Of a stretch of 64,000 nt of DNA, positions 16,123 through 52,640 are shown one piece after another. How positions within the stretch are numbered: the first letter of the stretch is position 1; each line of letters starts with the position of its first letter. The DNA comes from Oscillospiraceae bacterium (GTDB taxonomy: Bacteria > Bacillota > Clostridia > Oscillospirales > JAVBQB01): contig JAVBQB010000002.1 of the NCBI GenBank assembly GCA_031549265.1, positions 114,210-178,209 of the forward strand, given 5' to 3'. Below the pieces are notes generated by a model that was not told where the DNA came from, ran no database searches, and was given only the letters and a program-made list of their open reading frames with translations. Position numbers and translations under genes: made by a program.

Positions 16123-16192
16123 TTTTCCCTCCGTCCGGCAGGATTCCCGGGAAATACCACTCCCGAACCGCCGATAAATACCAGAAGACCTG

Positions 16193-19341: not shown

Positions 19342-19494
19342 ATGCGGAAACCTCGCTATTCTTGAGATTGGCGGCGGCGAATGCCTAAAAAGCCTGCGCG
19401 TCCCGCCAAACGTCAGCCCGCCAAAAGTCTATCGGAAAGATGCAAAAAGTATAAATGTCGAGATAAGAGTCAGTCAATACAGATGACAACGCAC

Positions 19495-19806
19495 TTAGTC
19501 GAGAATATTCGCGCCTATCGCGCGTTCTACAGCGCTGCGCAGTCCGCTCATGCCGAGACCCATGGAGCCGCTCTTGCCTGGAATCGGGATAATGGCGGGC
19601 GAGACGACGTCCTTATAAGCCGCGATCTCGGTCGTGAGCTCCGATACAAGCTGTTCAGTGATGTATATTATCGGATACCCTTCCGAGGCCAGGCGCTTGA
19701 GCGTGGGAGCCGCATCAGAGCGGTCCCCGCAGTAAAACACGTCGAGACCGAGCGCGCGAAAACCCATCACGCTTTCCCGGTCGCCCATCACCGCGATCTT
19801 ATACAT
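19495..19806 (-). CDS. ntpG: V-type ATP synthase subunit F
   Basis: 103 aa; MYKIAVMGDRESVMGFRALGLDVF is typical of subunit F. Overlaps the subunit C gene. Confidence 0.9.
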   Translation of the reverse strand: MYKIAVMGDRESVMGFRALGLDVFYCGDRSDAAPTLKRLASEGYPIIYITEQLVSELTTEIAAYKDVVSPAIIPIPGKSGSMGLGMSGLRSAVERAIGANILD

Positions 19807-20797: not shown

Positions 20798-20839
20798 TGT
20801 TTTCACCTCCCGGCAGCCGGGACTTTCCGGCATGTATTA

Positions 20840-21439
20840 TCAGTCAAACAGAATTTTTGATATGTCGGGCGCCCACTCGTCGCGAACTGCCCGCAGCATA
20901 GCGGCGAAGGTGCAGTTCAGCTCAATCCTGCCGTCGACTAGTATCAGACCGCAGCCGATGGGACGGATTTCCTCGGACAGCGTGAGGTTTGCCGGTCGTC
21001 CGAGCTCCTCAAGCTGTTTGTTGGCGGAGGCGACAATTTTTTTGCCAAACCGCTGACGGAAGGACATGTTGAGAATGATCTGCTCGCTGCCTGTGCGCGA
21101 GGCCTTGACGGCAAGTCCGGTAAGAAGCGCCGCCATCTCGTCGTCAGGCAGGTTCCACAGTTTTTCCAGAGCCATCGCGAACGCTTCGTCTATCTTTTCC
21201 TGACGAACGCCCAGCTCCAGCTTGCGGGCTTCTAATACCGCGACGCCAGTGCGCCGCTCAAGCAGTTCCTTCGCCGCTCGTCTGCCGTTTTCAAGCGTCG
21301 CTTCGGTTTCCTGCTCGGCCTGCTTTGCGGATGCGGCAAGGATAGCCGCAGCTTCACTCCGCGCCTGCTCCAGCTGTGCGCCGGTTTCACTGTCGGCTTC
21401 GCTCAGTATTCTAGCCGTAATTCGTTCAATACCATTCAT
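20840..21439 (-). CDS. ntpE: V-type ATP synthase subunit E
   Basis: 199 aa with an Ala/Glu-rich N-terminal helix and a globular C-terminus. AAGGTGA RBS. Position matches the ntp operon order. Confidence 0.85.
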   Translation of the reverse strand: MNGIERITARILSEADSETGAQLEQARSEAAAILAASAKQAEQETEATLENGRRAAKELLERRTGVAVLEARKLELGVRQEKIDEAFAMALEKLWNLPDDEMAALLTGLAVKASRTGSEQIILNMSFRQRFGKKIVASANKQLEELGRPANLTLSEEIRPIGCGLILVDGRIELNCTFAAMLRAVRDEWAPDISKILFD

Positions 21440-21568
21440 TGTGAGTCACCTTATTGCCACTGTGTAAGTCATCATAAATGACAAAAAGCGGCAGAAAATT
21501 ATGCGTATTGCGAGCGTTCAGCAGGCAATAGGCCGCCGTCAGAGCGCGAATCAGAGATCGAAAACCGG

Positions 21569-22057
21569 TCAGGCAGTCAGGTTGACGTTTGAGATCATCA
21601 TGATTGAGGCAAGCAGGCAGAGAATTGCGTAGAACTCGACCAGGATACACATGATCATACCCTTGGAGAGTTCCTCGGGGCGCTTGGAAATCAGTCCAAT
21701 GGAGGCCGCGGCGACTCTGCCCTGGGCGATAGCCGACAGCATTCCGCCGATCGCGATGGGCAGGCAGGCCATACAGACGGCAGCGCCGCCCGCGACAGTG
21801 ATCTGCACAGGGTCTGGCGTGAGGATCTGCATCGCGTTGAGCACCCAGAACCAGATAACGAATCCATAAAGACCCTGCGTACCCGGCATGATTTGCAGGA
21901 CGAGCACCTGCGCGAATTTGCCCGGCTCCTCCGAAAGAAGTCCGGCTCCGGCCTCGCCGGTGGAGCCGACGCCTATTGCCGAGCCGGCGCAGGCCAGTCC
22001 GACCGCGAGAGATGCTCCGAGCAGGGCGAGAACGGTTCCGTTAAGAAGAAAATCCAT
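21569..22057 (-). CDS. ntpK: V-type ATP synthase proteolipid subunit K (4-TM c subunit)
   Basis: 162 aa, duplicated hairpin. Motifs LQIMPGTQGLYGF, SAIAQGRVAA and ILVEFYAIL match the ion-site residues of Enterococcus hirae NtpK. Confidence 0.95.
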   Translation of the reverse strand: MDFLLNGTVLALLGASLAVGLACAGSAIGVGSTGEAGAGLLSEEPGKFAQVLVLQIMPGTQGLYGFVIWFWVLNAMQILTPDPVQITVAGGAAVCMACLPIAIGGMLSAIAQGRVAAASIGLISKRPEELSKGMIMCILVEFYAILCLLASIMMISNVNLTA

Positions 22058-22059
22058 GT

Positions 22060-23994
22060 TCAGTTGTCCTTTCTGATAATGTCAAAGTATTTCGGCTCAA
22101 GCCGCAGCGGCTTAAACGGACGCCCGCCGCTTTCGTAGAACTTGCTGAAGTATTCGAGGTATTGCAGGCGCGCGCCGTGGACGTATGTGCCGATTATATT
22201 GACAGCCATGTTAAAGAAATGGCCGATAACAAAGACCAGGATGAAGAAAACCGGTCCCGCGCCCGCGCCAAGCTGGTTTACCACCGAGGCGATGACGCTG
22301 CTTGCCATCATCAGGGCCATCAGGCGGGCATAAGAGAGGATATCCGAAAAGTAGTTCGTGATGTTGTAGAGGCTGGCAAGCCCGCCGATGAATTTTCCGC
22401 CGATGCTGGGCGAGTGCCGCCCTTGGGTGAGTATGAGCATAAGCGCGCCTGCAACCGTTATCCAGAACGTACCGCCCGTGACCCATACGCCGATTCCCGC
22501 GAACAGCACCCACCATGAGCCGACGTCGAACAGTGCATCCAGCGGCTTGCCGTCCCGGCAGAGCAGGTAGATCTTGATACACATTCCGGTGAAGAGCTGG
22601 ATCGCGCCGATAATAAGCGCGGCGACCAGGGTAAGCATCGGCTCCTTGACCGGGTTGATGAGCGCGGGCATTACCACCGTGCCGGGCGCGGCTCCAAAAA
22701 AGGTCTCGGCGATGACTGTTATCGCGTCGCCGAAGAATCCGCCGAACAGCAGACCTGACGCGGCGCTGACGAGTCCGACAACCCGCCCCAGCTCAAACAG
22801 CTGACGCACGGTGCCCCGCGGACGGACTTTACGCAGCACGATTGCCGAAAAGATAAAGACAATAAGCCCGTAAGCGAGGTCGCAGTACATAATGCCGAAA
22901 AAAATCGGGAAGAACGGGAATATCAGCGGGTTTGGGTCGATGTTGTTATACTTGGGCAGGGAATACATCTCGGTGACCAGATTCATTGTGCCGACCAGTT
23001 TGCTGTTGCGCAGCTCAACCGGCACATCGTCCGACGGGTCGGGGTCGGTCAGCTCAAAGGCGCAGTCGTATTTCGCAAAGAGCCGCGCGAGGTTGTCGGA
23101 ATCGGATTCGCGCACCCAGCCCTCCATGAAAAACGCCTGACCCGTCTTCAGCAGGTTCGCCCTCGCATGTTCGCGGTCGAGCTTGATCGTGAGCATATCA
23201 TAGGCGCGGCGGAGACCGTCTCGGGTATGCGACATGGCAGCGACGTTCTCGACTGTTTGGGCACGGACTTTTTCACACTCGACAATGTCGGCGAGGGTAC
23301 TCGTTATATTCTCGCTCGCTGTGCCGTGCATGTCCTTGAAGCTCTGCTGGGTGAATCCGATGGGCTTCAGAAGAGCCATCGCTGCATCAAGGTCGTCTGA
23401 GTGGCATATCAGGAGGATGTAGTGCTGTTCGGCGTCAGAGGAGCTGATAATCAGTTCGCTGTCCGTGGCTCTCGCCAGTTCGGAACGCAATTCGTCAAGG
23501 CTTGCGTTGGACGGCAGGACGCCGAAACAAAAAAAGCAATTAGCGGTAGATTCGGTCTGGAGCGGGACGTAAATTTCCTTCCAGGGCAGGAGAAGCTCGT
23601 ATTTGTTTTTCAGGCGGCTCTCCTCGGTGAACATCTCGTTGATAATCCTGGCGAGTTCGCCAAGCTTATCCGCTGTCTCAAGCTGAGCGGACAAAAATTC
23701 GTCGTCAAACAGAGCGGAATTTGAGATAAACGGGCGCGCGCTCAGCAACGGAGTCTTTTGCCGCGCGAATTTGTCCAGCGAGTCCAGCGCCAGAGCGACA
23801 GACGCGCGCTGGTCGCGAAGCTCAATATCGTCTGCCGCGTCCTTAGTGACTATCGCCTGCCAAACGGGGTCGCTCAGGCGATCGGAGCATTCTTCCGGCT
23901 GGACGCATCCGGCGTCGGTAATCTCGGTCAGCAGGCGCGTTTTGTCCCTGGCGAGCGCGATAAGCCTGACGCGCTTCATCTTGACAATTGCCAT
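22060..23994 (-). CDS. ntpI: V-type ATP synthase subunit I (a-like stator/channel)
   Basis: 644 aa. Soluble N-terminal half MAIVKMKRVRLIAL... plus a polytopic C-terminal half with the conserved ARLMALMMAS motif (essential Arg). Confidence 0.95.
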   Translation of the reverse strand: MAIVKMKRVRLIALARDKTRLLTEITDAGCVQPEECSDRLSDPVWQAIVTKDAADDIELRDQRASVALALDSLDKFARQKTPLLSARPFISNSALFDDEFLSAQLETADKLGELARIINEMFTEESRLKNKYELLLPWKEIYVPLQTESTANCFFCFGVLPSNASLDELRSELARATDSELIISSSDAEQHYILLICHSDDLDAAMALLKPIGFTQQSFKDMHGTASENITSTLADIVECEKVRAQTVENVAAMSHTRDGLRRAYDMLTIKLDREHARANLLKTGQAFFMEGWVRESDSDNLARLFAKYDCAFELTDPDPSDDVPVELRNSKLVGTMNLVTEMYSLPKYNNIDPNPLIFPFFPIFFGIMYCDLAYGLIVFIFSAIVLRKVRPRGTVRQLFELGRVVGLVSAASGLLFGGFFGDAITVIAETFFGAAPGTVVMPALINPVKEPMLTLVAALIIGAIQLFTGMCIKIYLLCRDGKPLDALFDVGSWWVLFAGIGVWVTGGTFWITVAGALMLILTQGRHSPSIGGKFIGGLASLYNITNYFSDILSYARLMALMMASSVIASVVNQLGAGAGPVFFILVFVIGHFFNMAVNIIGTYVHGARLQYLEYFSKFYESGGRPFKPLRLEPKYFDIIRKDN

Positions 23995-31858: not shown

Positions 31859-33007
31859 ATGAACGAATTTGGTCGGCGCGTTAAGGGTTTTTTCATGGAA
31901 GCGGATATGTTTCTGCTTTCCATATGTCTGGTGCTGTCCGGATTCGGCGTGGTGCTGATTTCGAGTGCGTCGAGAACACTCCCCGGAGGGCCGGGCCGCT
32001 ACATGACAATCCAGATAGCGGCGATTATTCTCGGGGTGATCGGGTTCATCATCATGTCCATGATCGATGTCGAGCATATTTCCGAGGCGTGGAAGATAAT
32101 TCTGGTGTTTAACGCGCTGTTCATGCTCAGCCTGATTCCGTTTGGGGTTCAGACTGACAACAACCGCAGCTGGATCAGGCTGGAGCCGTTTTTGCCGGTC
32201 GGCATTCAGCCCGCGGAGATCATCAAGATAACGTTCATTGTTCTGATGGCGAAGCACATGTACCATCTCAGGGAAACGCTGAGCTCAGTCAAGTCCATGG
32301 CGCAGATTGGCGGACACCTTTTTCTGATGCTGGCGCTCATATACGTCGTTTCCAGCGACGACGGAATGGTGGTAATGTACTTTTTGATATTCGTGTGCAT
32401 GGCGATTGCGGCGGGCGTCAAGCCGCGGTGGTTCATCCTCGCCTTCGGCATAATAGCGGCGGCGGCGCCCTTTGTCTGGTCACACATGAGAGACTATCAG
32501 CAAAAGCGTATTCTGGTTCTGCTCAACCCGGAGCTCGACCCGCTGGGAGCCGGATGGCAGACCACAATGAGCAAAATTGCCCTGGGCGGAGGTCAGCTCG
32601 CGGGACAGGGACTGTTTGAGGGCACCCAGACTCAATATGACAAGCTGCCCGCCCGCCAGACCGACTTCATCTTTTCGGTATGCGGCGAGGAGCTTGGCTT
32701 CATCGGCTGTATCGCACTGATTGCGCTGCTCACAATAATAATTGTCCGGTGCCTTTACATCGCGTCGAGAGCCAAGACCGGTATGTCGATGCTGGTGTGC
32801 GTCGGCATCGCAGGGATGCTGATTTCGCAGGTCATTATCAATATCGGAATGTGCGTGGGCATTCTGCCGGTAATCGGGGTTACGCTGCCTTTCGTCAGCT
32901 ACGGAGGAACGTCGGTGGTCGCGCTGTTCATGGCGATGGGGCTCGTGTCCGGTGTGCGAATGCGGCCGATGCCGAACTGGCTGCGCGACCGCGCTAATAT
33001 CAACTGA
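31859..33007 (+). CDS. SEDS-family peptidoglycan polymerase (FtsW/RodA/SpoVE)
   Basis: Motifs QPAEIIKITFIV, RQTDFIFSVCGEELGFIGC, GVTLPFVSYGGTS. 382 aa, polytopic. Confidence 0.9.
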   Translation: MNEFGRRVKGFFMEADMFLLSICLVLSGFGVVLISSASRTLPGGPGRYMTIQIAAIILGVIGFIIMSMIDVEHISEAWKIILVFNALFMLSLIPFGVQTDNNRSWIRLEPFLPVGIQPAEIIKITFIVLMAKHMYHLRETLSSVKSMAQIGGHLFLMLALIYVVSSDDGMVVMYFLIFVCMAIAAGVKPRWFILAFGIIAAAAPFVWSHMRDYQQKRILVLLNPELDPLGAGWQTTMSKIALGGGQLAGQGLFEGTQTQYDKLPARQTDFIFSVCGEELGFIGCIALIALLTIIIVRCLYIASRAKTGMSMLVCVGIAGMLISQVIINIGMCVGILPVIGVTLPFVSYGGTSVVALFMAMGLVSGVRMRPMPNWLRDRANIN

Positions 33008-33165
33008 GGGTATTAACCGGCGCGGAATAGCATCGAAACCCGGAGAAAATCGGATGTATCGCGCGAATCACGCCGGATTCTGGTAGAAGTATCGGCAATT
33101 ATGATGACAACAATAGGCGAACTGATCTCTGCGCGCGCGGCAGAGACTAATATTTTATAACGGAG

Positions 33166-33777
33166 GTGCGGGAGCAAGATGGATTGCCGAATAACATGAG
33201 CGGTCAGAGCACAACAAAAAAAGACAGCGGATTTCGCAAAAAATACCTGGACACCCAGGCGGAAAACGTGCGGCTGAGGGCGCAGGTGGAAGCACTGGAA
33301 GCCGAGCTGTCGGGAGCTAGGCAGCTGATTCAGTCACAGGCCGCGGAGATACTCGACAAGTTTAACGTTATCGCTGACATGCAGATATCCAACAACGCGC
33401 TGTCGGAGGAGTGCAAAATACTTGGAACCAGACTGCGCAATTTGAAGAGCGCGGCCGGGACGCCGGTAAATGAAAATGAAAGTAATAAGCGAGAAAAACA
33501 GGCTCAAGCGCGGCTCAAAGCGGGGACGATATCAGCGTCGGGTGAGCTTTGCGTGCAGTCCCGGAGCTTTGACGTTACAGTGTTCGGTGAGGGGAGCTTC
33601 GACGAGCTCAGGAAAGCCGCAAATGACATGGATGAGATTTGGCTGATCGCCAGCGAAATCGGGTCGTTCAGGCTGCGCGGAAAAATGAAATCATGCAGGG
33701 AATTTGAAACGAAACTAAAAACATTCGCGCATCTGCTAGAATTAAAAGATTATCTGACGAGGAGAGATTATGGATAA
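33166..33777 (+). CDS. Hypothetical coiled-coil protein, first gene of a three-gene McrBC-like operon
   Basis: Charged, heptad-rich N-terminal half (KKYLDTQAENVRLRAQVEALEAELSGARQLIQSQAAEILDKF...) with no catalytic motif. The stop overlaps the next ATG (ATGGATAA). The start is uncertain: GTG 33166 or ATG 33196. Confidence 0.55.
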   Translation: MREQDGLPNNMSGQSTTKKDSGFRKKYLDTQAENVRLRAQVEALEAELSGARQLIQSQAAEILDKFNVIADMQISNNALSEECKILGTRLRNLKSAAGTPVNENESNKREKQAQARLKAGTISASGELCVQSRSFDVTVFGEGSFDELRKAANDMDEIWLIASEIGSFRLRGKMKSCREFETKLKTFAHLLELKDYLTRRDYG

Positions 33778-35698
33778 CAGCAAAATAGATTATATTGGCG
33801 AACTGGCAAGCGACGACGATGTGCGTGACCTCACGGGCAAGGACAACAGCCGCCGTGTTTTCATAAATAACATCGGAGAGCTTCAATACAGCGTGAAAAT
33901 CATCTCCGAACCTTCTCCGGCGTCGGGCACACTGGTCACCGGGTACCTGAACTCGATAATAGGAAGCATTTTTGAAGAAGAGGAATATGAACAGGACGCG
34001 CATGACGAAAGAACAGATAAATTTTCAAATTACATTTCAAATTATCTATTCATCTTAAATTACACCGAAAAAAACTCTTACAGAAGGATAAACCGGGCGA
34101 CGCTGGTCGGAAAGCCGCCGTCCCACTGCAAAAGTTCGCGCTATGTCGCGGTGCCGGTATTCCAGCCGAGAGGCGAGACGGCCGACTGGGAAGCCGACCG
34201 CGGAGTGAAGCTGTACCGCGACTTTGAGACGCTCGAAGAATTCGCGGACACACTGGAAGCACGCAAAAACACCGGCAGAGTTGAGAACTATTCGGCTGAG
34301 CAGAACCGGATTCAAATGATATTCTGGCTGAAGGATGGAAATCTGACGGCTGTGGGGCCGTTTGACTCCTGCCGCGTCCAGGCGCGCGGGTATACACTTG
34401 GATTTGACCGGCTCTTTAAGGCGGAGCTGGACGACGCCGACGAGAGCTTTGTCTATCTGCCGGAGTACAATCCGACTTTGCTGCATATTGACGAGAACGA
34501 CTACGACAAGCTGTTCGGCAGGCTGCGCTCCGGAGATTGCGACGTGCTCCGCGACAGGCAGAATCTTGCCGACGGCATAGAGAGCGACGTTCGCGCGGCC
34601 GCTGATCCGGCTGATATTGACCGGGCGGTGCTTGACAGGTTGGCGGTTTTGCTTTCCTTTCGGGACGCGTGTTTCCCAATCGGGACACTGCATCATTTGC
34701 ATACCGCCGTCAAAACCGGCTGGTTCACGGTGATCACAGGCTCGAGCGGGTCGGGTAAAACCCTGCTGGCCGACGCATATGTGAAAGCGGCGGCCGGAGA
34801 TCTCGCGCCCGCCGACAACTGCCTGAGGATCAACATGAATCCCTCGTGGCCGGATGACAGCCCGCTGCTGGGCTGTGTGGACAGAGACGCCTTGCTGTAC
34901 TGGCCGGGCGAAACAGGGCTGCTGGACCTGATTCTGGACGCGCAAAAAGCTCCGGAGCGGCCGTTCTTTGTCCTGCTGGACGACATTAACGCCGTCAGCG
35001 CCGATATGATCCTGACAAGGCTGCTGGGCGCGCTGGGAAGCGTCGGCGGATGCCGCCAGGTCGCGCTGTATGGCCCGAAACTGGAGCAGACGCTGCGCAA
35101 CGGTTCGCGCTACCCGTATATGCTGGAAATACCGGATAATGTTAATTTTATCGCGACCGCGTTCACCGGGCAGGGCGCTCACGCGCTGTCAGACAGGCTG
35201 TTGTCGGTCGCCTGCGTGATAAACCTCGGCTGCAAAGCCTGCGATGCGGCGGATGATATGGCTGGGGACCGGTTCGCACCGCATTTGCGCGAGATGGACG
35301 GGCGAGATTATACCCTCCTGCGCGAGACTGACGAAATGCTCCCGGCGCCGGTTCGAGAAATGCTTGCCGAGCTGAGCGCCGTTCTGACCGCCGCGTCGCC
35401 GGGGTTCAGAATCAGCCGGAGAACGCTGCGGCGCATGGGAATTTACTTGAATGCTTTCACCGGGGATACGACAGAGGGAGTAAACCTTACGGAGGCGCTG
35501 GACAGATTGCTGGTGTCGTGCGTGCTGACCAGGATTCGCGGAGACGAGGATCAGCTCTCCGACCTGCTCAGCGGCTCTCCGGACAAGGGTCTTATCCCGC
35601 GGCTGGATAATTTCTCGGCTTTGTCGGGATTCAAAGACTGCCGTGAAACGGTGCTGGCCAGAAAAAAAGAGCTGAATACTTATGGCTATTGCGTTTGA
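33770..35698 (+). CDS. Large protein with an unknown ~320-aa N-terminal domain and an AAA_5/McrB-like P-loop NTPase core
   Basis: Walker A ITGSSGSGKT (34739-34762) and Walker B FFVLLDDIN (34964-34990). NVNFIATA and ALSDRLL follow in the order and spacing of the McrB/MoxR AAA_5 core. Overlapping start and stop codons on both sides. Confidence 0.7.
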   Translation: MDNSKIDYIGELASDDDVRDLTGKDNSRRVFINNIGELQYSVKIISEPSPASGTLVTGYLNSIIGSIFEEEEYEQDAHDERTDKFSNYISNYLFILNYTEKNSYRRINRATLVGKPPSHCKSSRYVAVPVFQPRGETADWEADRGVKLYRDFETLEEFADTLEARKNTGRVENYSAEQNRIQMIFWLKDGNLTAVGPFDSCRVQARGYTLGFDRLFKAELDDADESFVYLPEYNPTLLHIDENDYDKLFGRLRSGDCDVLRDRQNLADGIESDVRAAADPADIDRAVLDRLAVLLSFRDACFPIGTLHHLHTAVKTGWFTVITGSSGSGKTLLADAYVKAAAGDLAPADNCLRINMNPSWPDDSPLLGCVDRDALLYWPGETGLLDLILDAQKAPERPFFVLLDDINAVSADMILTRLLGALGSVGGCRQVALYGPKLEQTLRNGSRYPYMLEIPDNVNFIATAFTGQGAHALSDRLLSVACVINLGCKACDAADDMAGDRFAPHLREMDGRDYTLLRETDEMLPAPVREMLAELSAVLTAASPGFRISRRTLRRMGIYLNAFTGDTTEGVNLTEALDRLLVSCVLTRIRGDEDQLSDLLSGSPDKGLIPRLDNFSALSGFKDCRETVLARKKELNTYGYCV

Positions 35699-37337
35699 CC
35701 ACAAGCTGCCGTTCAGGCTGCTGTTTATTACCGAGTATGACGACCCGCGAGTATCGCTGGCGGAGCGGTTTTGCTGCGACTACGGCCAGTTTTTGCTGAT
35801 GGACATCGTCAGCGCCGAGATCGAGGAGAACGACAACGTCTCGATCTTGTTCGACAGCGCGGACCGGGACGCCAGGTTCTATCTGGAGGCGCTGGATTCC
35901 ATTCCGGCGAGCCCGCTTACCAGAATTGACGGTCAGGGGCGGTATTACAGAATGCCATCCGAGCAAAAGTTCGCGCTCTACCGCAACTGTTCCGGCGGAG
36001 AATACTGCGCGCTGCGGGTGGGAATATACCGGATTATCGTAGAGGCGTGCGGAAAGCAGTTTTTCGGCGCTCTGAGGGTGCGTCCCAAACAGCTTTCGCA
36101 CAACGAATGGTCCGAGATGATCGAGGAGCTTGAGAGCGAGTCCGCGGGACTTGCGCGGGAGTTCGGCAAAAGTGAAAGCCGTCAGCCGACTGACGGGCTC
36201 ACGGGCAGGCATGAGCGGTCCTACAGGACGCTGAAAAAGCACACGGGCTCGCTGCTGCGTATTTTTGGCACGGCTGATGACAGGATTCTCCCGTCCGGAG
36301 GCGCGGGGGCAAGCCGGAGCTGCCCGGCTCAAAAGCGCGAACTGATCTGCAAAACCGCGCGACTCTGCCGCCGTGAGCTTGACGAGATTCTGAGCATTGC
36401 TGGACTGGCGGACGTTGGAGTCAGCGCCGGTAACGGCGAGGCGCCGGGTGCGGGAGACATGCCGGATGCCGGGGAGCTGCGGAACTTTATCCCGACGGCG
36501 CGCAGACTAAGACTAGCCGCCGCGGGGGTATGCCGCCGCTACCGGGTGGCGGGAAATTCGAACGGCGCGGCGGGAGCTATGCCTGATACGCCGGGCGATG
36601 CCGAGTGCGCCCTGCTGGCTGCGATATGCAGGACGCTCGCCGGGCGCGAGCCGAAATCGACCGCGAAAATGCGGTTTTCGGGAGTTTGGAAGACCAGCAG
36701 CAATCTTTACGAACGCTGGTGCTTTATGAAGATATACCACATGTTTCGCGCGAGGTACAAGATGCTGCCGTCTGTAAAGTGCGAGGCGGCGGAAAGTGGT
36801 TCCGATACCGCTGACCTTTACGACTGGGAGCGGGTTTCCTTTCTTCGCGGCGGGGATATTCGGCTGGATCTGGTATATGACCGGGCGCTCCCGATCAGCG
36901 GAGATAATACTGACAGCGAAATCCACCCATTATGGATACGCTCTGAGAAAGCCGGTTTCAGGCCGGACATACTGATAAATATTTTCGAATATACCAGCGG
37001 CAGGTATTTTGGCAGCATTGTGCTGGAGTGCAAATACCGAAAGTTTAAGAGCTTTTGGGAGAGTACGCTGTCGTCCAAGGAACAGATCATATCCTATCAG
37101 GAGAAATCGCGTTCAAAGTTCTATCTTTCCGAACGGATTGACGTCAGACCGGTGCAAAAGGTGTTTGTATTAAATCCCGATCTCGGGGGAGTGGAGCGCG
37201 AAAGCGGTACTGTGGTAATCAGCAGAATGCGACCCAAGGACGAGACGTCGCTCGCGGCCACGGTTGACGCCATTGACCGGGCGATTGAAAGCGCGTGCGA
37301 GATCGCGGTCACTTTTAACAGATTACTGGGCGTTTGA
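35682..37337 (+). CDS. McrC-like protein: N-terminal domain, low-complexity linker and C-terminal PD-(D/E)xK nuclease
   Basis: C-terminal signature LYERWCFMKIY...GFRPD(36966-36968)ILINIF...GSIVLE-C-K(37026-37034)YRK. 17-nt overlap with the upstream NTPase gene. 551 aa. Confidence 0.7.
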   Translation: MAIAFDHKLPFRLLFITEYDDPRVSLAERFCCDYGQFLLMDIVSAEIEENDNVSILFDSADRDARFYLEALDSIPASPLTRIDGQGRYYRMPSEQKFALYRNCSGGEYCALRVGIYRIIVEACGKQFFGALRVRPKQLSHNEWSEMIEELESESAGLAREFGKSESRQPTDGLTGRHERSYRTLKKHTGSLLRIFGTADDRILPSGGAGASRSCPAQKRELICKTARLCRRELDEILSIAGLADVGVSAGNGEAPGAGDMPDAGELRNFIPTARRLRLAAAGVCRRYRVAGNSNGAAGAMPDTPGDAECALLAAICRTLAGREPKSTAKMRFSGVWKTSSNLYERWCFMKIYHMFRARYKMLPSVKCEAAESGSDTADLYDWERVSFLRGGDIRLDLVYDRALPISGDNTDSEIHPLWIRSEKAGFRPDILINIFEYTSGRYFGSIVLECKYRKFKSFWESTLSSKEQIISYQEKSRSKFYLSERIDVRPVQKVFVLNPDLGGVERESGTVVISRMRPKDETSLAATVDAIDRAIESACEIAVTFNRLLGV

Positions 37338-37403
37338 AAAACGAAAGCCCCGCGCAGCCTCGGAACTATGAGGCTTTGATCTTAATAGAACGCAGAAATA
37401 AGT

Positions 37404-37433
37404 AACGCGCCGGGGAATTACACCCGGCGCGTT
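37404..37433. terminator. Bidirectional terminator between the McrBC-like operon and convergent hydF
   Basis: An 11-bp stem, AACGCGCCGGG pairing with CCCGGCGCGTT, with an 8-nt loop. Confidence 0.6.
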
Positions 37434-37448: not shown

Positions 37449-38636
37449 TTAATAGACAATCCGGTCGAGAATGCCGCCGGTTTTCGCGAACGCGATGCCA
37501 AAATTGGTAACAGGCACTCCTTTTTCCCGCGCCGCCGCGATGCGCGTCAAAAACAGCCGCCGGTTGATCATGCAGCCGCCGCAGTGCACGACAAGCGCGA
37601 ACCCCGAAAGCTCGGGCGGGGAGTCCGATCCCGAGCACACCTCGAAGGCAAGCGTTTTGCCGGTGGCTTTTCTGATCGCGCCCGGCAGCTTTTCGGTGGC
37701 AATATCGCCGCACTGGCGGTGGTGCGTGCACGCCTCCATGACCAGTATCCGGTCGCCGTCGTGGAGATTGCCGATGGCGTTCGCGCCGCTGACCAGCAAA
37801 TCGATATCGCCCTTAAAACCGGCGAACAGCACCGAAAACGAGGTCAGCCGGATGTCCGGACTCAAAATTCGGTTCACTTTATCGAACACCTGTGAATCGC
37901 AGATGACCAGATCGGGACGGGGCAGGGATTCGAGCGCTTGTTCCAGCTGGGCATCGGTGATGATTGTGGCTATCGCGCCGTTGTCGAGCAGATCGCGCAG
38001 CATTTGCACCTGCGGAAGGATCAGCCGTCCTTTTGGCGCCTGGATATCCTGCGGCGCGACAAGTAAAACGTGGTCTCCGGGATTTACCAAATGGCCGGCC
38101 AGCGACAGACGTTCGAAATCGAGCGGCGCGTTCGCGGATATAAACGACTTGACGGCGGTGGCCGCCGACGGATCTCCCAGCAAATCAACGCTCAGATACG
38201 ACGCGCCATCAAAAGCGGCGGGTCGGCCGGAGTCGGTCTCCCCTGATCTCAGGTTCCGTATGACGATTGTGGGAATACCCCGCGCCGACGCCAGACTAAA
38301 CAGCTCGGTCTCGCTCGAAAGTTCGGCGCCGTCTCCCGCGATTATTATGACGGCGAGGTCGGTTCGGTCGAGAATGTCGAGCGACTTGCCGCGGCGCTGC
38401 CTGCCGAGTGCGCTGTCGTCGTCCAGTCCTGCGGTGTCGGTGATCTGTACGGGTCCCACCGGGTAAAGCTCCATTGCCTTGGACACGGGATCGGTGGTGG
38501 TACCGCGAATCGGGCTGACAATGGACAGGCTCTGGCCGGTAATTATATTGAGCAGCGTCGATTTGCCGGCGTTGATTTTGCCGAAAATGCCGATGTGAAG
38601 GCGATTGGCGATTGGCGTCTGGTTGAAATCACTCAT
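37449..38636 (-). CDS. hydF: [FeFe]-hydrogenase H-cluster maturation GTPase HydF
   Basis: G-domain IGIFGKINAGKSTLLN, TTDPV and DTAGLDD. C-terminal cluster ligands CTHH...VVHCGGC. Confidence 0.9.
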   Translation of the reverse strand: MSDFNQTPIANRLHIGIFGKINAGKSTLLNIITGQSLSIVSPIRGTTTDPVSKAMELYPVGPVQITDTAGLDDDSALGRQRRGKSLDILDRTDLAVIIIAGDGAELSSETELFSLASARGIPTIVIRNLRSGETDSGRPAAFDGASYLSVDLLGDPSAATAVKSFISANAPLDFERLSLAGHLVNPGDHVLLVAPQDIQAPKGRLILPQVQMLRDLLDNGAIATIITDAQLEQALESLPRPDLVICDSQVFDKVNRILSPDIRLTSFSVLFAGFKGDIDLLVSGANAIGNLHDGDRILVMEACTHHRQCGDIATEKLPGAIRKATGKTLAFEVCSGSDSPPELSGFALVVHCGGCMINRRLFLTRIAAAREKGVPVTNFGIAFAKTGGILDRIVY

Positions 38637-42465: not shown

Positions 42466-43905
42466 TCAGCTTTTGCCTTTTTGCGAAAGCAGCGATTTGT
42501 AAAGCGCGATATATTCCGCGGCAGACTTTGACCAGCTCAAATCAAGCGACATACAGTTGGTGATCAGTTTTTGCCAGACCTTCTTGTTTCCATAGCAATC
42601 AATCGCCTGCTTGAGGACATACATCATGTCGTCTGCGTTAAAATTAGAGAAGGCAAAGCCGTTTCCGGCGCCGGTATCGGGGTCGTAAGGCTGGACGGTG
42701 TCGCGCAGGCCGCCCGTTTCACGGACGACGGGTACGGTACCGTACCGCATGCCGATCATCTGGGAGATGCCACAGGGCTCGGTCTGGGAGGGCATCAGCA
42801 AAATGTCGGCGCCCGCATAAATCATCATGGCCAGATTGTCGTTGTACATAATTTTTGCAGAAACTCTGCCTGCGTACTGCTGCTGAGCGTTTTGGAACCG
42901 CTGCTCATAATGCCATTCGCCGCGGCCGAGCACGACAAACTGCATGTCGAGGTTCATCATCGCGCCCAGCGAGACTGTCGCAAGATCAATGCCCTTGTGA
43001 TGCACCAGACGCGTAACCATCGCCACCAGCGGAATGTTCTCGTCCTGATTCAGGCCGACAAGGCGCTGCAATTCCAGTTTGTTGGCGGTTTTCTTGGCGA
43101 TGCTGTCTATCCCGAAATTCTGCAATATGCGCACGTCGGTTTCGGGATTGTACAGGTCGGTGTCTATGCCGTTGAGAATGCCCTTGAGTTTGTCTGCGTT
43201 TTCGCTGATGATGTCCTGCAACCCGCGCGCGTAAAAGGCGTAGCCCAGTTCCTTGGCGTATGTCGGGCTGACGGTGGTGACGAAGTCGGACATCAGGATG
43301 GCGGCCTTCATCAGCGATACGCCGCTGCCGAACCTCAGTACGCCGTTGGTATACAGGTCGTATGACAGGCCGAACAGGTCGCAAACGGTGTTCGCGCCGA
43401 ACTGGCCCTGGTATTCGATGTTGTGGATGGTAAACACCGTTTTGATGGATGACAGCAGCTCGTTGTCCGACAGCCTGAGGTAGATGGGAACAAGCGCAGT
43501 CTGCCAGTCGTTGCAGTGCACGATATCCGGAGTCCAGCCGAGCTCGGGGATAATATCCGCGGCGGCGCGCGAGAAATAGGCAAACCGCTCGCCGTCATCG
43601 AAATATCCGTAAAGCTCGGAACGCTTGAAATAATATTCGTTGTCAATGAAATAATAGGTTATACCGTTGTGTTTGCATTCATACAGGCCGCAGTAAAGAT
43701 TGCGCCATGCCAGGCGGATATAAATATACTTTACAAATTTCATTTTATCCCGGAGTTCCGGGGGAGTGCTCGCGTAGAGCGGAAGCAGTACCCGAACAGA
43801 AACCTTTTTATCAAAAAGTTCGCGGGGCAGTGAAGCGGCAACGTCGCCCAGTCCCCCGGTTTTAGAAAATGGGGCGGCTTCACTGGTAACAAAAAGAACT
43901 TTCAT
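42466..43905 (-). CDS. glgA: Glycogen synthase
   Basis: MKVLFVTSEAAPFSKTGGLGDV start and GT5 family features. 479 aa. Confidence 0.95.
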   Translation of the reverse strand: MKVLFVTSEAAPFSKTGGLGDVAASLPRELFDKKVSVRVLLPLYASTPPELRDKMKFVKYIYIRLAWRNLYCGLYECKHNGITYYFIDNEYYFKRSELYGYFDDGERFAYFSRAAADIIPELGWTPDIVHCNDWQTALVPIYLRLSDNELLSSIKTVFTIHNIEYQGQFGANTVCDLFGLSYDLYTNGVLRFGSGVSLMKAAILMSDFVTTVSPTYAKELGYAFYARGLQDIISENADKLKGILNGIDTDLYNPETDVRILQNFGIDSIAKKTANKLELQRLVGLNQDENIPLVAMVTRLVHHKGIDLATVSLGAMMNLDMQFVVLGRGEWHYEQRFQNAQQQYAGRVSAKIMYNDNLAMMIYAGADILLMPSQTEPCGISQMIGMRYGTVPVVRETGGLRDTVQPYDPDTGAGNGFAFSNFNADDMMYVLKQAIDCYGNKKVWQKLITNCMSLDLSWSKSAAEYIALYKSLLSQKGKS

Positions 43906-44082
43906 AATGACCTCCCTATTGGAATAACTCTCGCGTGTCGGTTGGCGCGACCGGCGTCAAAAGTTAAGTCGTAATTATTGCGCCAGCTTCGTCATTAGTA
44001 TAGCTCCAGCTTCCAGGTAAAGATTTACGCGCAGCCAAAAGAGCAGAACCACTTTTGCTTTATGCGCCTGACAGTAAACGGG

Positions 44083-45195
44083 TCAGACAACGACGCCCTT
44101 CGCGATGGCGATCGGGTACGTCTCGTGGCCCATCAGCATACGGCCTTGGTTTATCAGAACTTCTTTGTCCGTTATAGCATATGTCAGTGAAGCGTTTTCC
44201 TTGACGCGGGTGTCCTGCATCAGCACGCAATTATTGATTCTAGCTCCCTTGTGAACCCGTACCCCCCGGAAAAGAATACTGTTTGTGACCTCGCCCTCGA
44301 TGTAGCAGCCGTCGGCCACAACGCAGTTTTTTACGACCGACTCCTGACCGTAATAAGTCGAAGACTCGTCGCGCACCTTGGTTTTGATCGGGCGGCGCGC
44401 GTTAAACAGCTCACTGCGGACGTCGGGCTGAAGCAGCTCCATGCTGTGCTTGAAGTACGACGCGGCGCTGTCCAGCCTCGCGGTAAAGCCGTCAAAGACA
44501 TATCCGTGGACGGACAGGGCGCCCAGCATTTTTTGAAGGACATTGCGCTCAAAGTCGTAGAGGTTATACGCGGTGCTGTGGCTGATAAGCTTAAGGAGCA
44601 GCTGTTTTTCCATGATGTAAAAGTCCAGAGATTCGTATCCGCCGGTCTGGGGTATGTCTGCGGCGATATCGGCAACCATGCCGCCCGTTCCCAGCGTGAA
44701 GAATGTCGCGTTCTCGTGCCTGATACGCTTCTGAGTGCAGACCGCTGTAATGTCGGCGCCGCTTTCGATATGTGAGTCGTAAATATCGTCAATCGGGAAG
44801 TTCGCTATCAGGTCACCGTCCGCGATCGCCACATATTTCTGCCGGATTCGCTGAACAAACGTGGAAACCGCCGACAGCGCCTCCATTTTTCCACGGTATA
44901 TCTCGCCGACGCGGCTCTGGGCATACCCAAACGGGGGAAGCAGGCGCAGTCCGCCGCGTTTGCGGTTGAGATCCCAGTCCTTGCCTGAGCCCAGGTGGTC
45001 GAGCAGCGACTGATAATTTTCGCGCATGATAACGCCGACGTTGGTAATGCCCGCGTTAACCATGCTGGACAGCATAAAGTCAATAACACGGTACCGTCCG
45101 CCGAAGGGAAGGGACGGAGCGGCGCGCAGGTCGCCGAGCTCTTTGACCTTTGCCTGTGTGCTGTATGCCAGGATTATTCCGAACATGTCTCTCAT
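44083..45195 (-). CDS. glgD: Glucose-1-phosphate adenylyltransferase regulatory subunit GlgD
   Basis: PFGGRYRVIDFMLSSMVNAG and a left-handed beta-helix C-terminus. It lacks the GGxGxRL motif of GlgC and follows glgC. Confidence 0.9.
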   Translation of the reverse strand: MRDMFGIILAYSTQAKVKELGDLRAAPSLPFGGRYRVIDFMLSSMVNAGITNVGVIMRENYQSLLDHLGSGKDWDLNRKRGGLRLLPPFGYAQSRVGEIYRGKMEALSAVSTFVQRIRQKYVAIADGDLIANFPIDDIYDSHIESGADITAVCTQKRIRHENATFFTLGTGGMVADIAADIPQTGGYESLDFYIMEKQLLLKLISHSTAYNLYDFERNVLQKMLGALSVHGYVFDGFTARLDSAASYFKHSMELLQPDVRSELFNARRPIKTKVRDESSTYYGQESVVKNCVVADGCYIEGEVTNSILFRGVRVHKGARINNCVLMQDTRVKENASLTYAITDKEVLINQGRMLMGHETYPIAIAKGVVV

Positions 45196-45247
45196 ACGTC
45201 AAACCCTTCCTTTCCTTTTCAGTAGGCCGCCGCGGCCGCCGGTCCGC

Positions 45248-46459
45248 TTAAAGCAGGTCTTCGCCCACCATTTGCCTAGCGGCAACTATCCTGCCCGGGC
45301 CAATGGTTTTGTCGGCGGCGACCACTGATATTCCCCATTCTCCTGTCGTGTCGTCGGCGGGAAGAGAACCAACGCGCGCGTCCTTGCAAATTCTCGCGCG
45401 TTCGCCGACGATCGAATATTCAATCACCGCGCCGTCCTCGACGACGGCGTCCGGCATTATTATCGAGTAACGTATCGAAGCGCCCGAGCCGACCTTCACG
45501 TTGTGAAAAAGCACCGAGTTTTCGACTGCGCCGTATACAACGCAACCCCCGGTAACCAGCGAGTGGGACAGCGTGGAGTCGGGGCCGCAGTAATGCGGGG
45601 GAGCGTCGGCGCTGCCGGCGTAAATGCGCCATTCCGGATCAAAAAGATTGAGTCCGGTCTCGGGAGACAGCATGTCCATGTTGGCCTCCCACAGGCTTTC
45701 GATGGTTCCGACATCTTTCCAGTATCCGGAGAAGCGGTAAACCATCATTTTCTCGTTATTTGCCAGCATCTTTGGTATGATATTGGCGCCGAAGTCGTTG
45801 GAGGACTTGGGATCGCGCTCGTCGTCCAACAAATACATCCGGAGCTTTTGCCAGCTGAAGACGTATATACCCATCGAAGCGAGGTTGGATTTCGGCACTT
45901 TCGGCTTTTCCTCAAATTCGAAGATAGTGTCATCGGAATTCACGTTCATTATTCCAAAACGCGAAGCCTCTTCCGCGGAAACCTCGATAACGGCTATTGT
46001 GCAGTCCGCTTCGTTCTTTCTGTGATGGTCGATCATCTGCCGGTAGTCAAATTTATAGATATGGTCGCCCGACAGGATGAGCACGTATTCCGGGTCATAT
46101 CTGTCAATAAAATCCATGTTTTGGTAGATGGCGTTCGCCGTGCCCTTGTACCACGTTCCCTTTTTCCCCTTGATATACGGCGGTAGAATATGCACGCCTC
46201 CGTCAATTCGGTCGAGATCCCAGGCCTGGCCGCTGCCGATATACGCGTTGAGCTCGTGCGGCTGATACTGGGTGAGCACGCCGACCGTATCGATATCGGA
46301 ATTGACGCAGTTGGAAAGCGGAAAATCGATAATGCGGTACTTTCCGCCGAACGGGACGGCGGGCTTTGCGATTTTTTCGGTCAGGCAGTAAAGGCGGCTG
46401 CCCTGACCGCCCGCCAATAGCATGGCCACGCACTCTTTGTTAGCAAACAATAGTATCAC
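45248..46459 (-). CDS. glgC: Glucose-1-phosphate adenylyltransferase
   Basis: [10 protein letters not shown] and [15 protein letters not shown] motifs. The start is uncertain (GTG 46459 or a downstream codon). Confidence 0.93.
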
Positions 46460-46506
46460 TCCAGAACGGTATAATTCTTAACACGCGGTGCGCGGATGCT
46501 TGCCGG

Positions 46507-48405
46507 TTATTGATCGGTGACGCGCTCCAGGAAAACCGCGCCGTACGGCGGTACGGTCAATTTAATGGACTGTTCCTTGCCGTGCCACGGATTATTCTCG
46601 GTGTACAGGATATGCGGATTGGTGTTGCCCCATCCGCCGAAACGGACATCGTCCGAGTTCAGAAGCTCGCGGTACGCGCCGGGGAGCGGCACGCCAAGCT
46701 GATATCCCGCCCTGTTGACGGGAGAAAAGTTGGCGACAAACAGCAATTCTCCGCCGGAAGCGTTCTTGCGGCTGAAGGCGATTGTGTTGCCGTTAAAATC
46801 GTCGCAGCAAAGCCAGTCGAAGCCTTTCCAATCGTAATCGATCTCCCAAAGCTCGCTGCGGTCGAGATAAAAGCGGTTTATTTCCCGGAAAAAGTCCAAC
46901 AGCTGGCGGTGACGGTCAAATTCCAGCAGGTGCCAGTCCATAGATTTGTCATACGCCCACTCGATGAACTGTCCGAACTCGGAGCCCATGAAGATCATCT
47001 TTTTTCCGGGGTGAGCCATCATGTACGAATAAAAGGAACGAGTACCGGCAAACTTATCGTCGTAGAAACCGGGCATTTTGTTGAGAAGTGAGCCCTTGCC
47101 GTGAACGACCTCGTCGTGCGAAATCGGGAGGATGTAGTTCTCTGAAAAAGCGTACATGAGCGAAAAGGTGATATCCTTGTGATTAAACTGGCGGAACACC
47201 GGATCCATTTGCAGATAGTGGATGATGTCGTTCATCCAGCCCATGTTCCACTTGAAGCTGAATCCGACTCCGCCGAGATACGTCGGCTTTGTGACGTTAG
47301 CCCATGCGGTCGATTCCTCGGCAATCATCAGCACGTTGGGGAAGGAGGCAAACACGGCCTCGTTCAGCCGCTGCAAAAAGTCGACCGCCTCGAGGTTCTC
47401 GCGTCCGCCATACTTGTTGGGCCGCCACTGGCCGGGCAGGCGCGCGTAGTCGAGATAAAGCATGGACGCAACCGCGTCGACGCGCAGTCCGTCTATATGG
47501 TACTTCTCGAACCAAAATACCGCCGAGGACATAAGAAATGAGCGGACCTCGTTTCTGCCGTAGTCGAAAACGCGCGTTCCCCAGTCGGGATGCTCGCGCT
47601 TCATCGCGTCCGAGTATTCGTAGCAGCAGGTGCCGTCAAATTCCATCAGCCCGTGGCCGTCTTTGGGGAAATGAGCGGGAACCCAATCGAGTATTACCGC
47701 GATTCCGGCGTCGTGGCACGCATCGACAAACGCCATAAAGTCGGCGGGCGTGCCGTATCTGGAAGTGGCCGCGAAGTAGCCGGTGCACTGGTATCCCCAC
47801 GAGCCGTCGAAGGGAAACTCCATCACGGGCATAAGCTCAATGTGGGTGAAGCCGAGGTCTTTGACGTAAGGAATGAGCTCGGCGGCGAGCTGAGCGTATG
47901 AATAGGGGCTGCCGTCGGCGTGGAGCCGCCAGGAGCCGGGGTGCAGCTCGTATATGTTCATCGGGCGGTCAAACATCGGACAGGCGGAGCGTGCCGCTAT
48001 CCACTCGTCGTCCCGCCATTCGTAGGCATCAAGGTCATACGCCTTAGAGGCGGTCTTGGGACGCACCTCGGCGTGAAAAGCGTAAGGGTCGGATTTTTCG
48101 AGAAATTTGCCGCGGGAGGTTTCCACGCAGTATTTATACGCGGAATACTGCTCCAGACCGGAGACAAAGACCTCCCACACTCCCACCGAGATTTTTTTCA
48201 TCGGGGTGGCTCCGCGGTTCCACTCGTTAAAATCCCCGATCACCGACACCGATTTCGCGCCGGGCGCCCACACACGGAAGACGACGCCGGGGTACCGGCC
48301 GCGTTTTTCGAAATGGGAACCCATGAACTCGTAAGCTCTCGAATCGGTGCCTTCATGGAAAAGATATAAATGATATTCAAGACTGTTTTTCTTGTTGACG
48401 GCCAT
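46507..48405 (-). CDS. glgB: 1,4-alpha-glucan branching enzyme
   Basis: GH13 motifs DWVPAHF, DGLRVDAVASM, MIAEESTAW, SHDEVVHGK. 632 aa. Confidence 0.95.
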   Translation of the reverse strand: MAVNKKNSLEYHLYLFHEGTDSRAYEFMGSHFEKRGRYPGVVFRVWAPGAKSVSVIGDFNEWNRGATPMKKISVGVWEVFVSGLEQYSAYKYCVETSRGKFLEKSDPYAFHAEVRPKTASKAYDLDAYEWRDDEWIAARSACPMFDRPMNIYELHPGSWRLHADGSPYSYAQLAAELIPYVKDLGFTHIELMPVMEFPFDGSWGYQCTGYFAATSRYGTPADFMAFVDACHDAGIAVILDWVPAHFPKDGHGLMEFDGTCCYEYSDAMKREHPDWGTRVFDYGRNEVRSFLMSSAVFWFEKYHIDGLRVDAVASMLYLDYARLPGQWRPNKYGGRENLEAVDFLQRLNEAVFASFPNVLMIAEESTAWANVTKPTYLGGVGFSFKWNMGWMNDIIHYLQMDPVFRQFNHKDITFSLMYAFSENYILPISHDEVVHGKGSLLNKMPGFYDDKFAGTRSFYSYMMAHPGKKMIFMGSEFGQFIEWAYDKSMDWHLLEFDRHRQLLDFFREINRFYLDRSELWEIDYDWKGFDWLCCDDFNGNTIAFSRKNASGGELLFVANFSPVNRAGYQLGVPLPGAYRELLNSDDVRFGGWGNTNPHILYTENNPWHGKEQSIKLTVPPYGAVFLERVTDQ

Positions 48406-52487: not shown

Positions 52488-52512
52488 TTGCGCGTTACGC
52501 AACCGATTTGTG

Positions 52513-52547
52513 TGCTGTTGCGGCGGGAGCGATCCGCCGCAACAGCA
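52513..52547 (+). terminator. Strong hairpin after nifJ (14-bp stem); a second hairpin lies at 52600-52622
   Basis: TGCTGTTGCGGCGG pairing with CCGCCGCAACAGCA, with a 7-nt loop. The downstream CCCCCCGA/TCGGGGGG hairpin is followed by a T-rich tract. Confidence 0.55.
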
Positions 52548-52640
52548 TAATATGTTTAACTCGCATTTGGCAAAATCCGACGTAAAATCTCCTAATACTC
52601 CCCCCCGATTGGATTCGGGGGGCTGTTGTGTTGATTTGAG

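Follow-up and report, generated by a model that had tools for sequence, protein, structure and literature searches.

We analysed a stretch of 64,000 nucleotides (nt) from the genome of an Oscillospiraceae bacterium (contig JAVBQB010000002.1, positions 114,210 to 178,209; hereafter the window), in which an initial annotation had singled out a block of three genes at 33166-37337 as a candidate McrBC-like defence or restriction operon with a separate coiled-coil subunit. All three open reading frames (ORF1 to ORF3) lie on the plus strand, overlap, and are open over about 4.1 kb in the ORF call of the window. Each of them was found to match a protein of a three-gene cassette that is common and widespread in Bacillota; thus, all three genes are homologous to the cassette. 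This copy departs from its relatives in the NTPase core of ORF2, in the middle of ORF3 and at the N terminus of ORF1. We consider it an even call that the block is a copy of this McrBC-derived cassette which lies on the chromosome, has strongly diverged, is hydrolysis-deficient and is still maintained as protein. The block comprises the following features.

33184 to 33777, plus strand: ORF1, 197 amino acids (aa) from TTG 33184 in the public gene call
33166 (GTG, 203 aa) and 33196 (ATG), plus strand: alternative starts of ORF1
33770 to 33777, plus strand: ORF1/ORF2 overlap, ATGGATAA, 8 nt, with the ORF2 start over the ORF1 stop
33770 to 35698, plus strand: ORF2, 642 aa, CnuB/McrB-like
35682 to 35698, plus strand: ORF2/ORF3 overlap, 17 nt, with the ORF3 ATG at 35682 and the ORF2 TGA at 35696-35698
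35682 to 37337, plus strand: ORF3, 551 aa, CnuC/McrC-like

The overlapping frames, motifs, residues, flanking genes and two hairpins reported in the initial annotation were all recovered at the same coordinates. The TTG start of ORF1 at 33184 is preceded by GGGAG 9 nt upstream. To judge from its layout, the ATGGATAA overlap at 33770-33777 is a site of translational coupling of ORF1 and ORF2.

Homologues of ORF3 were retrieved with an exhaustive HMMER search, which returned 244 proteins (150 at E <= 1e-10), typically of 570-610 aa and matching the N- and C-terminal thirds of ORF3. Ten of these were scanned against Pfam; PDDEXK_7 was present in 10/10 and DUF2357 in 9/10, mostly above the curated cut-offs. 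Where the contig was long enough, the loci of the best homologues showed the same A-B-C operon, in which A is a protein of ~340 aa with no Pfam matches, B an AAA_5-like protein of ~640-655 aa and C the DUF2357 nuclease. The A family is built of a helical N-terminal domain, a coiled coil and a small alpha/beta C-terminal domain, and the B family of a conserved N-terminal domain of ~240 aa joined to an NxD-type McrB-like AAA+ GTPase module with the signature GT(V/I)N-x-D-E. C combines an Ig-like domain with a helical DUF2357 "finger" domain and a PD-(D/E)xK nuclease. BLASTP aligned the whole of ORF2, its first 300 residues included, with the 655-aa B protein of one such locus (L087) at 30% identity (E 5e-91). 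Of 515 six-frame ORFs in the window, ORF1 alone significantly matched a hidden Markov model (HMM) of 19 A-family representatives (E 6e-9). These matches bore out the McrBC-type ancestry and the stand-alone coiled-coil partner proposed before, with ORF2 homologous to McrB-like AAA+ proteins and ORF3 to the DUF2357 plus PDDEXK_7 family. The proposal of a new sensor domain had to be dropped, the whole N-terminal region of ORF2 being common to dozens of relatives.

A metagenome scan with the B alignment added 80 loci, the majority of them from the human gut, in which the A-B-C order and the overlaps recur where the sequence is long enough. The B/C overlap keeps its length of 17 nt across the cassette family, including the plasmid copies (8001-8017 in L087, 7610-7626 in L176 and 7067-7083 in L177), and the A/B junctions of relatives either overlap by 1-44 nt or are nearly contiguous. 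In one frame the 17 nt encode ...YGYC(V/I/L)* and in the other M(D/A)I(V/A)(S/F). This family-wide retention, with both frames coding, places a dual coding constraint on the sequence where B ends and C begins.

The window proteins themselves are isolated: all three form singleton clusters among 15 billion sequences, and they are known from a single strain. The source genome has no close relative in the collections, and its only other copy there is 100% identical. A word-index search with ORF2 found five distant relatives (P0002-P0006), and with ORF3 and ORF1 it found self-matches only. The reading of ORF3 and ORF1 as orphans was rejected in view of the 244 ORF3 homologues from the exhaustive search. 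The word-index search also missed full-length ORF2 homologues of 30% identity; "orphan" calls made by indexed search are unreliable for composition-shifted sequences such as ORF1-ORF3. With ORF2 or ORF3 as the single query, PDB, NCBIfam and PHROGs returned P-loop noise or nothing, and single-sequence profile searches with ORF1 gave coiled-coil noise only.

We then examined the domains of ORF2, which are arranged as follows.

ORF2 residues 1-240: family-conserved N-terminal (reader) domain
ORF2 residues ~241-297: variable linker
ORF2 residues 298-642: AAA+ core and lid

A profile of ORF2 with its five distant relatives aligned with E. coli McrB (EcMcrB) over ORF2 298-486 (hhalign probability 97%, E 6e-11), and the B-family profile matched the McrB PDB chains 6hz4, 6ut6 and 7vsr over the whole core. 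ORF2 alone stayed below the Pfam AAA_5 threshold, with P-loop-level matches only, whereas its B relatives pass it. The motifs GSSGSGKT (324-331), FFVLLDD (398-404), NVNFIATA and ALSDRLL follow one another in this order. Walker A is intact (G324-S-S-G-S-G-K330-T331, in a column block that is invariant in the family) and the Mg-binding D404 is retained. The Walker B motif reads LLD404-D405, where 18/18 relatives have D-E or E-E, and fits only the loose D[D/E] pattern. NVNFIATA corresponds to the conserved strand before sensor 1, and the N-x-D expected next is absent: F465-T-G467-Q468 aligns gap-free to the GT(V/I)N-x-D-E of all relatives and to NTAD of EcMcrB. Finally, the family motif SDK(V/L)LDRA reads SDRLLSVA in ORF2, with S479-V480 in the place of D-R and the arginine thus replaced by V480. 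By its position, with an alignment good to within 1-2 residues, the lost arginine of the second region of homology (SRH) would be the counterpart of the EcMcrB RR pair. In a motif census of 54 B-type sequences, only ORF2 lacked NxD, carried a DD Walker B and had SVA for DRA. It showed 40 private changes at columns invariant in 18 relatives, compared to a maximum of 6 for any relative, and in a leave-one-out control the relatives retained 87-100% of the invariant columns while ORF2 retained 42/82. A heptad scan of ORF2 gave no heptad-rich stretch except one marginal window.

McrB-like GTPases have been defined by Walker A, Walker B and Nx(xx)D (Bell, Sahakyan, Makarova, Wolf and Koonin, eLife 2024, PMC11090510), and the Asn of this signature is strictly required according to Pieper et al. 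1999, as cited in Bell et al. (PMC11090510). GTPase activity of McrB depends on each of the Walker-B Glu, the consensus-loop Asn and the Arg pair; replacing the Walker-B Glu by Ala abolishes hydrolysis by TgMcrB, and the finger domain of McrC enters the McrB ring and stimulates hydrolysis (Niu et al. 2020). The McrB-type NTPase core of the initial annotation stands as far as homology and an intact Walker A are concerned, but it is not intact as a whole: Nx(xx)D, the Walker-B Glu and the conserved Arg are absent, which makes an NTP-driven machine doubtful for this copy. Since ORF2 keeps the P-loop, nucleotide binding is plausible; from its residues, ORF2 may bind nucleotide and would be unlikely to hydrolyse it.

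ORF3 is divided as follows.

ORF3 residues ~11-134: N-terminal Ig-like beta-sandwich
ORF3 residues 140-320: helical bundle, with a core (163-317) diverged beyond sequence recognition
ORF3 residues ~339-549: C-terminal PD-(D/E)xK nuclease, with E344, D429, E449 and K451

The nuclease assignment held: ORF3 passes the Pfam PDDEXK_7 threshold (24.5 bits vs a cut-off of 22.1), and E344, D429 (codon at 36966-36968) and E449-C-K451 (37026-37034) fall in nearly invariant family columns. The middle of the protein behaved differently. The ORF3-family HMM matched residues 1-162 and 318-544 only, its positions 159-353 (~195) being unmatched in any frame, and Pfam DUF2357 gave no match in ORF3. A frameshift was considered as the cause and rejected, as the family HMM matches in no other frame. 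The AlphaFold2 model of ORF3 (pLDDT 83.3, pTM 0.76) shows a beta-sandwich, a helical bundle at 140-320 and an alpha/beta nuclease, with the strands of 11-134 at pLDDT about 85-97 and the alpha/beta domain of 339-549 mostly above 85. Foldseek matched the model weakly to Ig domains and RhoGDI (E 0.04-0.07), and a search of PDB with the ORF3-family profile returned helical-bundle noise only. The segment 163-317 is Ala/Gly/Arg-rich.

ORF1 is, to judge from its alignment, a truncated homologue of the upstream A protein of the cassette (CnuA-like). It aligns to positions 125-320 of the 323 positions of the A-family HMM, that is, to the coiled coil and the C-terminal domain, and shares the motifs KKxxxFRxKYL and E(I/L)W(L/I)I with A-family members. 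The N-terminal domain of about 120 aa is missing (the HMM match begins at 125), and no remnant of it was found upstream in any frame. ORF1 had been described as a heptad-rich coiled-coil protein; this applies to its N-terminal half, where the heptad scan confined the coiled coil to about residues 15-90 (~75 aa), but residues ~115-197 align to the non-coiled, alpha/beta-looking C-terminal domain of the A family. Pfam showed neither PYD/CARD-like nor REC domains in the N- and C-terminal regions of the A family.

The divergence of ORF2 and ORF3 was then quantified domain by domain. Below, identity of the window protein to its relatives is set against identity among the relatives, and retention is counted over columns conserved in >=80% of relatives.

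ORF2 N-terminal domain: identity 0.27 vs 0.27; retained 16/17
ORF2 NTPase core: identity 0.31 vs 0.66; retained 45/105 (60 changed)
ORF2 lid: identity 0.26 vs 0.39; retained 19/35
ORF3 Ig-like domain: identity 0.33 vs 0.32; retained 15/17
ORF3 helical core (163-317): identity 0.13 vs 0.32; retained 5/24
ORF3 nuclease: identity 0.29 vs 0.33; retained 29/34

By these alignments, the reader, Ig-like and nuclease domains are conserved at the normal level of the family. The segments that lost conservation have a G+C content of 0.62 (34661-35239, ORF2 NTPase core) and 0.65 (36168-36632, ORF3 163-317), compared to 0.51 in the conserved ORF2 N-terminal domain (33770-34489). The high G+C of the diverged segments may reflect drift to the compositional bias of the host under relaxed constraint.

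The cassette also occurs on plasmids. One copy lies on the Lactococcus lactis plasmid p275A (locus L176, NZ_CP016699.1 61704-66555) and another on the Bacillus pseudomycoides plasmid pN451-2.2. In both copies B passes AAA_5 and C passes PDDEXK_7, and the DUF2357 cut-off is reached only in the Bacillus copy. The mobilizable dairy plasmid p275A has its cassette bracketed by two identical transposase genes of ISS1, an insertion sequence (IS) of the IS6 family, with a gene for a "putative phage abortive infection protein" (Abi) about 3 kb away. In this layout the cassette resembles a phage-resistance module borne on a composite transposon. No homologues were found in phage genomes.

More distant are two-gene relatives, in which a 750-aa PDC-M26A-like NxD ATPase is followed by a DUF2357 nuclease with no upstream coiled-coil gene. 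P0002-P0006 are PDC-M26A-type proteins, and the four of them whose context was examined each lie directly upstream of another gene. P0002 and P0003 precede a DUF2357/PDDEXK_7 gene within defence islands (type I restriction-modification (R-M), Wadjet, WYL, NYN), and the gene after P0006 is cut by the contig end and unannotated. Two-gene loci were placed as follows.

L001, 8001-11823 of a JGI metagenome contig: between type I R-M HsdR and Wadjet JetC/JetD
L003, 4052-7909: adjoining NYN, WYL and beta-CASP genes

The block of the window, in turn, is flanked by core genes.

31859 to 33007, plus strand: FtsW/RodA/SpoVE (SEDS) gene, upstream flank
33126 to 33146, plus strand: hairpin with a 7-bp stem, then a T-rich tract, downstream of the SEDS gene and directly before the ORF1 ribosome-binding site
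37404 to 37433, minus strand: terminator with an 11-bp stem and its T-run on the minus strand
37449 to 38636, minus strand: HydF gene, downstream flank, convergent
15460-23994 (minus), 42466-48405 (minus) and 48921-56153 (plus): core-metabolism segments with V/A-type ATPase, GlgA/GlgB, PFOR and Mfd

The hairpin at 33126-33146 is probably the terminator of the SEDS gene. The 11-bp stem at 37404-37433, which had been taken as the terminator of the block, does exist, but its T-run lies on the minus strand and it is thus primarily the terminator of hydF; it may stop transcription of ORF3 as well. On the plus strand only a weak hairpin (37356-37375) follows ORF3. As reported before, no methyltransferase, integrase or tRNA adjoins the block: scans of the locus showed no integrase or methyltransferase gene, and the tRNA and Rfam scans near the block were both empty. 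No insertion scars or flanking repeats were found around it. G+C composition was rejected as an island marker, the block being indistinguishable from the rest of the window, and its G+C at third codon positions (GC3) resembles that of host genes, suggesting that the block has been in the host for long. The remaining window is of housekeeping character, with V/A-type ATPase subunits, FeoB, PFOR, Mfd, glycogen synthase and branching enzyme (GlgA/GlgB) and histidine kinases; spoIIGA and an SLH-domain protein are also encoded and, with the core-metabolism genes, point to a Clostridia host that forms spores. Long antisense ORFs at 34055-35182 (minus, 375 aa, in ORF2), 35631-36332 (minus, 233 aa, in ORF3) and 37471-38466 (plus, 331 aa, inside hydF) are probably by-products of high G+C, not genes.

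By analogy with McrBC, the B proteins of the relatives would form nucleotide-bound rings, the finger of C would insert into the B ring and stimulate GTP hydrolysis, and hydrolysis would license the C nuclease against nucleic acid recognised by the N-terminal domain of B. In the window copy the motor module has been remodelled, the finger region of ORF3 has diverged in parallel and the N-terminal adaptor domain of ORF1 is lost. Any activity of the resulting complex would be that of a reader-plus-nuclease that is hydrolysis-deficient and does not translocate, not that of a GTP-driven restriction motor, and the complex is probably a weakened or re-purposed defence module. Three domains and an open frame of 4.1 kb were spared while more than half of the conserved core was replaced, which argues for selection as protein and not for uniform neutral decay. 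A more specific version, which we offer tentatively and consider unlikely, makes ORF2 a natural pseudo-GTPase McrB that binds nucleotide and oligomerises without hydrolysis and that evolved in step with the remodelling of the McrC finger and the shortening of the coiled-coil partner. A translocating restriction motor would thereby have become a static, ligand-gated reader-nuclease switch kept by selection. If true, the McrBC/CoCoNuT lineage would here have its first branch without a motor.

Several observations weigh against a hydrolysis-deficient cassette maintained as protein. AAA+ proteins may formally carry DD in Walker B, and catalysis can be solved in unusual ways; accordingly, ORF2 may still hydrolyse NTP. 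The AlphaFold2 model of ORF2, made from a 6-sequence alignment, reached a pLDDT of 38 and was left out of the fold search. No match for a CSD or YTH domain emerged when the profile of the ORF2 N-terminal domain was run against PDB sequences and Pfam, and hhalign against CspA was not significant. The McrC-like character of ORF3 did not surface in comparisons with McrC itself: whole-chain Foldseek against PDB gave nothing at E <= 1e-3 and no McrC chain among the matches listed, and an hhalign comparison between the ORF3 family and E. coli McrC fell short of significance. The plus strand at 33008-33184 showed no sigma-70-like promoter, which could mean read-through or an alternative sigma factor. 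We infer selection on the operon as protein from intact ORFs and uneven domain conservation only, and a defence role, for the family as well as for the window copy, is putative and drawn from associations: the plasmid and IS location, the neighbouring Abi gene and the variable contexts.

The main rival is that the block is an early-stage, decaying relic, of the same CoCoNuT-like ancestry but non-functional, whose three losses would mark early pseudogenisation in a lineage without need of the system. This agrees with three independent lesions in three genes, with the lack of a detected promoter and with the singleton status of the proteins in 15 billion sequences, and the G+C of the diverged segments (0.62-0.65 vs 0.51 in the N-terminal domain) fits drift to the mutational bias of the host. 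Moreover, for S. aureus a three-gene Type I-B CoCoNuT has been reported from an island, and in another strain its alleles are disrupted by stops, showing that such cassettes do decay. However, the three reading frames remain open over about 4.1 kb with both coupling overlaps preserved, and neutral decay that replaced 60/105 core positions should also have hit the reader (16/17 kept), the Ig-like domain (15/17) and the nuclease (29/34), whose catalytic residues are intact. We rate decay as somewhat unlikely. A fully working NTP-driven McrBC-type motor, in which ORF2 hydrolyses through non-canonical residues and drives cleavage of modified DNA by ORF3, appears distinctly unlikely. Walker A and the Mg-binding D404 are intact, D-D fits the loose D[D/E] pattern, the AAA+ order of secondary structure is predicted for ORF2 with low confidence and the nuclease motif is intact, but the defining Nx(xx)D signature is absent, Val replaces the conserved Arg of the LDRA motif and 60/105 conserved core positions are changed. 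The GTPase-stimulating finger region of ORF3 is also unrecognisable by sequence, and ORF2 falls below Pfam AAA_5 while its relatives lie above.

The block could also be non-immune, a lineage-specific housekeeping or regulatory operon tied to SEDS/SpoVE cell-wall synthesis and HydF hydrogenase maturation. Its neighbours are indeed core genes, hallmarks of mobile elements or islands are absent, and its GC3 is host-like. Against this, 0/80 of the nearest HydF loci carry any of the three genes or a SpoVE linkage; homologous cassettes occur in unrelated contexts, on plasmids, between IS elements and beside an Abi gene; and type I R-M and Wadjet genes flank the distant two-gene relatives. Because the cassette shows no hydF/spoVE linkage elsewhere and is mobile elsewhere, a housekeeping role is very unlikely, close to negligible. 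Nor is the block universally conserved as a core operon, which the initial annotation had named as the outcome that would speak against defence: the proteins are singletons and the cassette occurs in variable contexts and on plasmids. The comparison of presence and absence between spoVE and hydF, also proposed there, was less informative, as the nearest HydF proteins of species-representative genomes are only 52% identical, come from Oscillospiraceae metagenome-assembled genomes and lack synteny; it shows only that there is no hydF linkage elsewhere.

A hydrolysis-deficient, maintained cassette would be a natural separation-of-function allele, with the GTPase set and the McrC finger changed together and the reader and nuclease preserved. 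If the copy is active, nuclease licensing would be separable from GTP hydrolysis, which bears on the coupling of motor and nuclease in McrBC-type machines; if it is inactive, it documents the decay of a cassette after chromosomal fixation. It also matters for annotation, since ORF2 was missed by Pfam AAA_5, by the PADLOC system call and by the word-index search, and the family was revealed by exhaustive profile search only. Hosts of the cassette family include bacteria of the human gut, and dairy plasmids of Lactococcus carry it as well.

Compared to known systems, the block resembles the LlaI/LlaJI/BsuMI-type systems in being a three-gene McrBC-derived operon of Bacillota with one function split into an upstream gene. 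There, the additional gene is described as a module for site-specific DNA binding, and the systems come with a methyltransferase, whereas the extra gene of the window encodes a coiled-coil protein and there is no methyltransferase; no profile match of the window proteins to LlaJI-type families was found. The PADLOC candidate PDC-M26 (unpublished, Payne et al.) was matched in part. ORF2 matches PDC-M26A (E 6e-9) and ORF3 matches PDC-M26B weakly (E 0.008), but the PADLOC check proposed in the initial annotation gave no system call: only ~110 residues around the ORF2 P-loop match, and the window is not callable as PDC-M26. In addition, PDC-M26 has two genes, and its A protein (e.g. P0006) has a fused coiled coil. 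With the McrBC of E. coli and Thermococcus (type IV restriction; Nirwan 2019, Niu 2020), the block shares a homologous AAA+ core in ORF2, a PD-(D/E)xK partner encoded directly downstream and the motif order Walker A, Walker B, consensus loop and SRH. Unlike McrBC, it lacks the DUF3578/ADAM reader and has a third gene, the catalytic consensus of MNxxDRS and RR pair is absent in ORF2, and ORF3 has an extra Ig-like domain.

By architecture and motif, the cassette family is likely to be Type I-B CoCoNuT, and the CoCoNuT comparison made in the initial annotation was apt. To our knowledge, no Type I-B CoCoNuT has been characterised experimentally. The type is a computational prediction, found mainly in Bacillota with 620 listed instances, and belongs to the NxD clade; it consists of CnuA, a separate coiled-coil protein (PYD/CARD-like, coiled coil and REC), CnuB (CSD, YTH and McrB, with no fused coiled coil) and CnuC (Ig-like, McrC N-domain and PD-DxK) (Bell et al. 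2024, PMC11090510). The layout of the block, which had been presented as possibly new, is therefore already catalogued: the A-B-C architecture is that of Type I-B CoCoNuT (Bell et al. 2024, PMC11090510), and it also agrees with the three-gene example from S. aureus. Both have a separate coiled-coil gene, an McrB-like protein with N-terminal domains and without fused coiled coil and then an McrC-like protein with Ig-like and PD-DxK parts and, between them, a DUF2357 domain that is putative in the window copy; both have overlapping frames and a Bacillota host, and NxD(E) is found in the relatives of the window protein. The Ig-like domain of ORF3 weakly matches RhoGDI, as PMC11090510 describes. 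In contrast, the window copy has an ORF2 without NxD, Walker-B Glu and conserved Arg, an ORF1 without the N-terminal (PYD/CARD-like) domain and an ORF3 whose DUF2357 core is unrecognisable by sequence, and CSD, YTH and REC were not detected by sequence methods. What sets this copy apart is a degenerate motor whose activator has diverged along with it, while the rest of the cassette is conserved.

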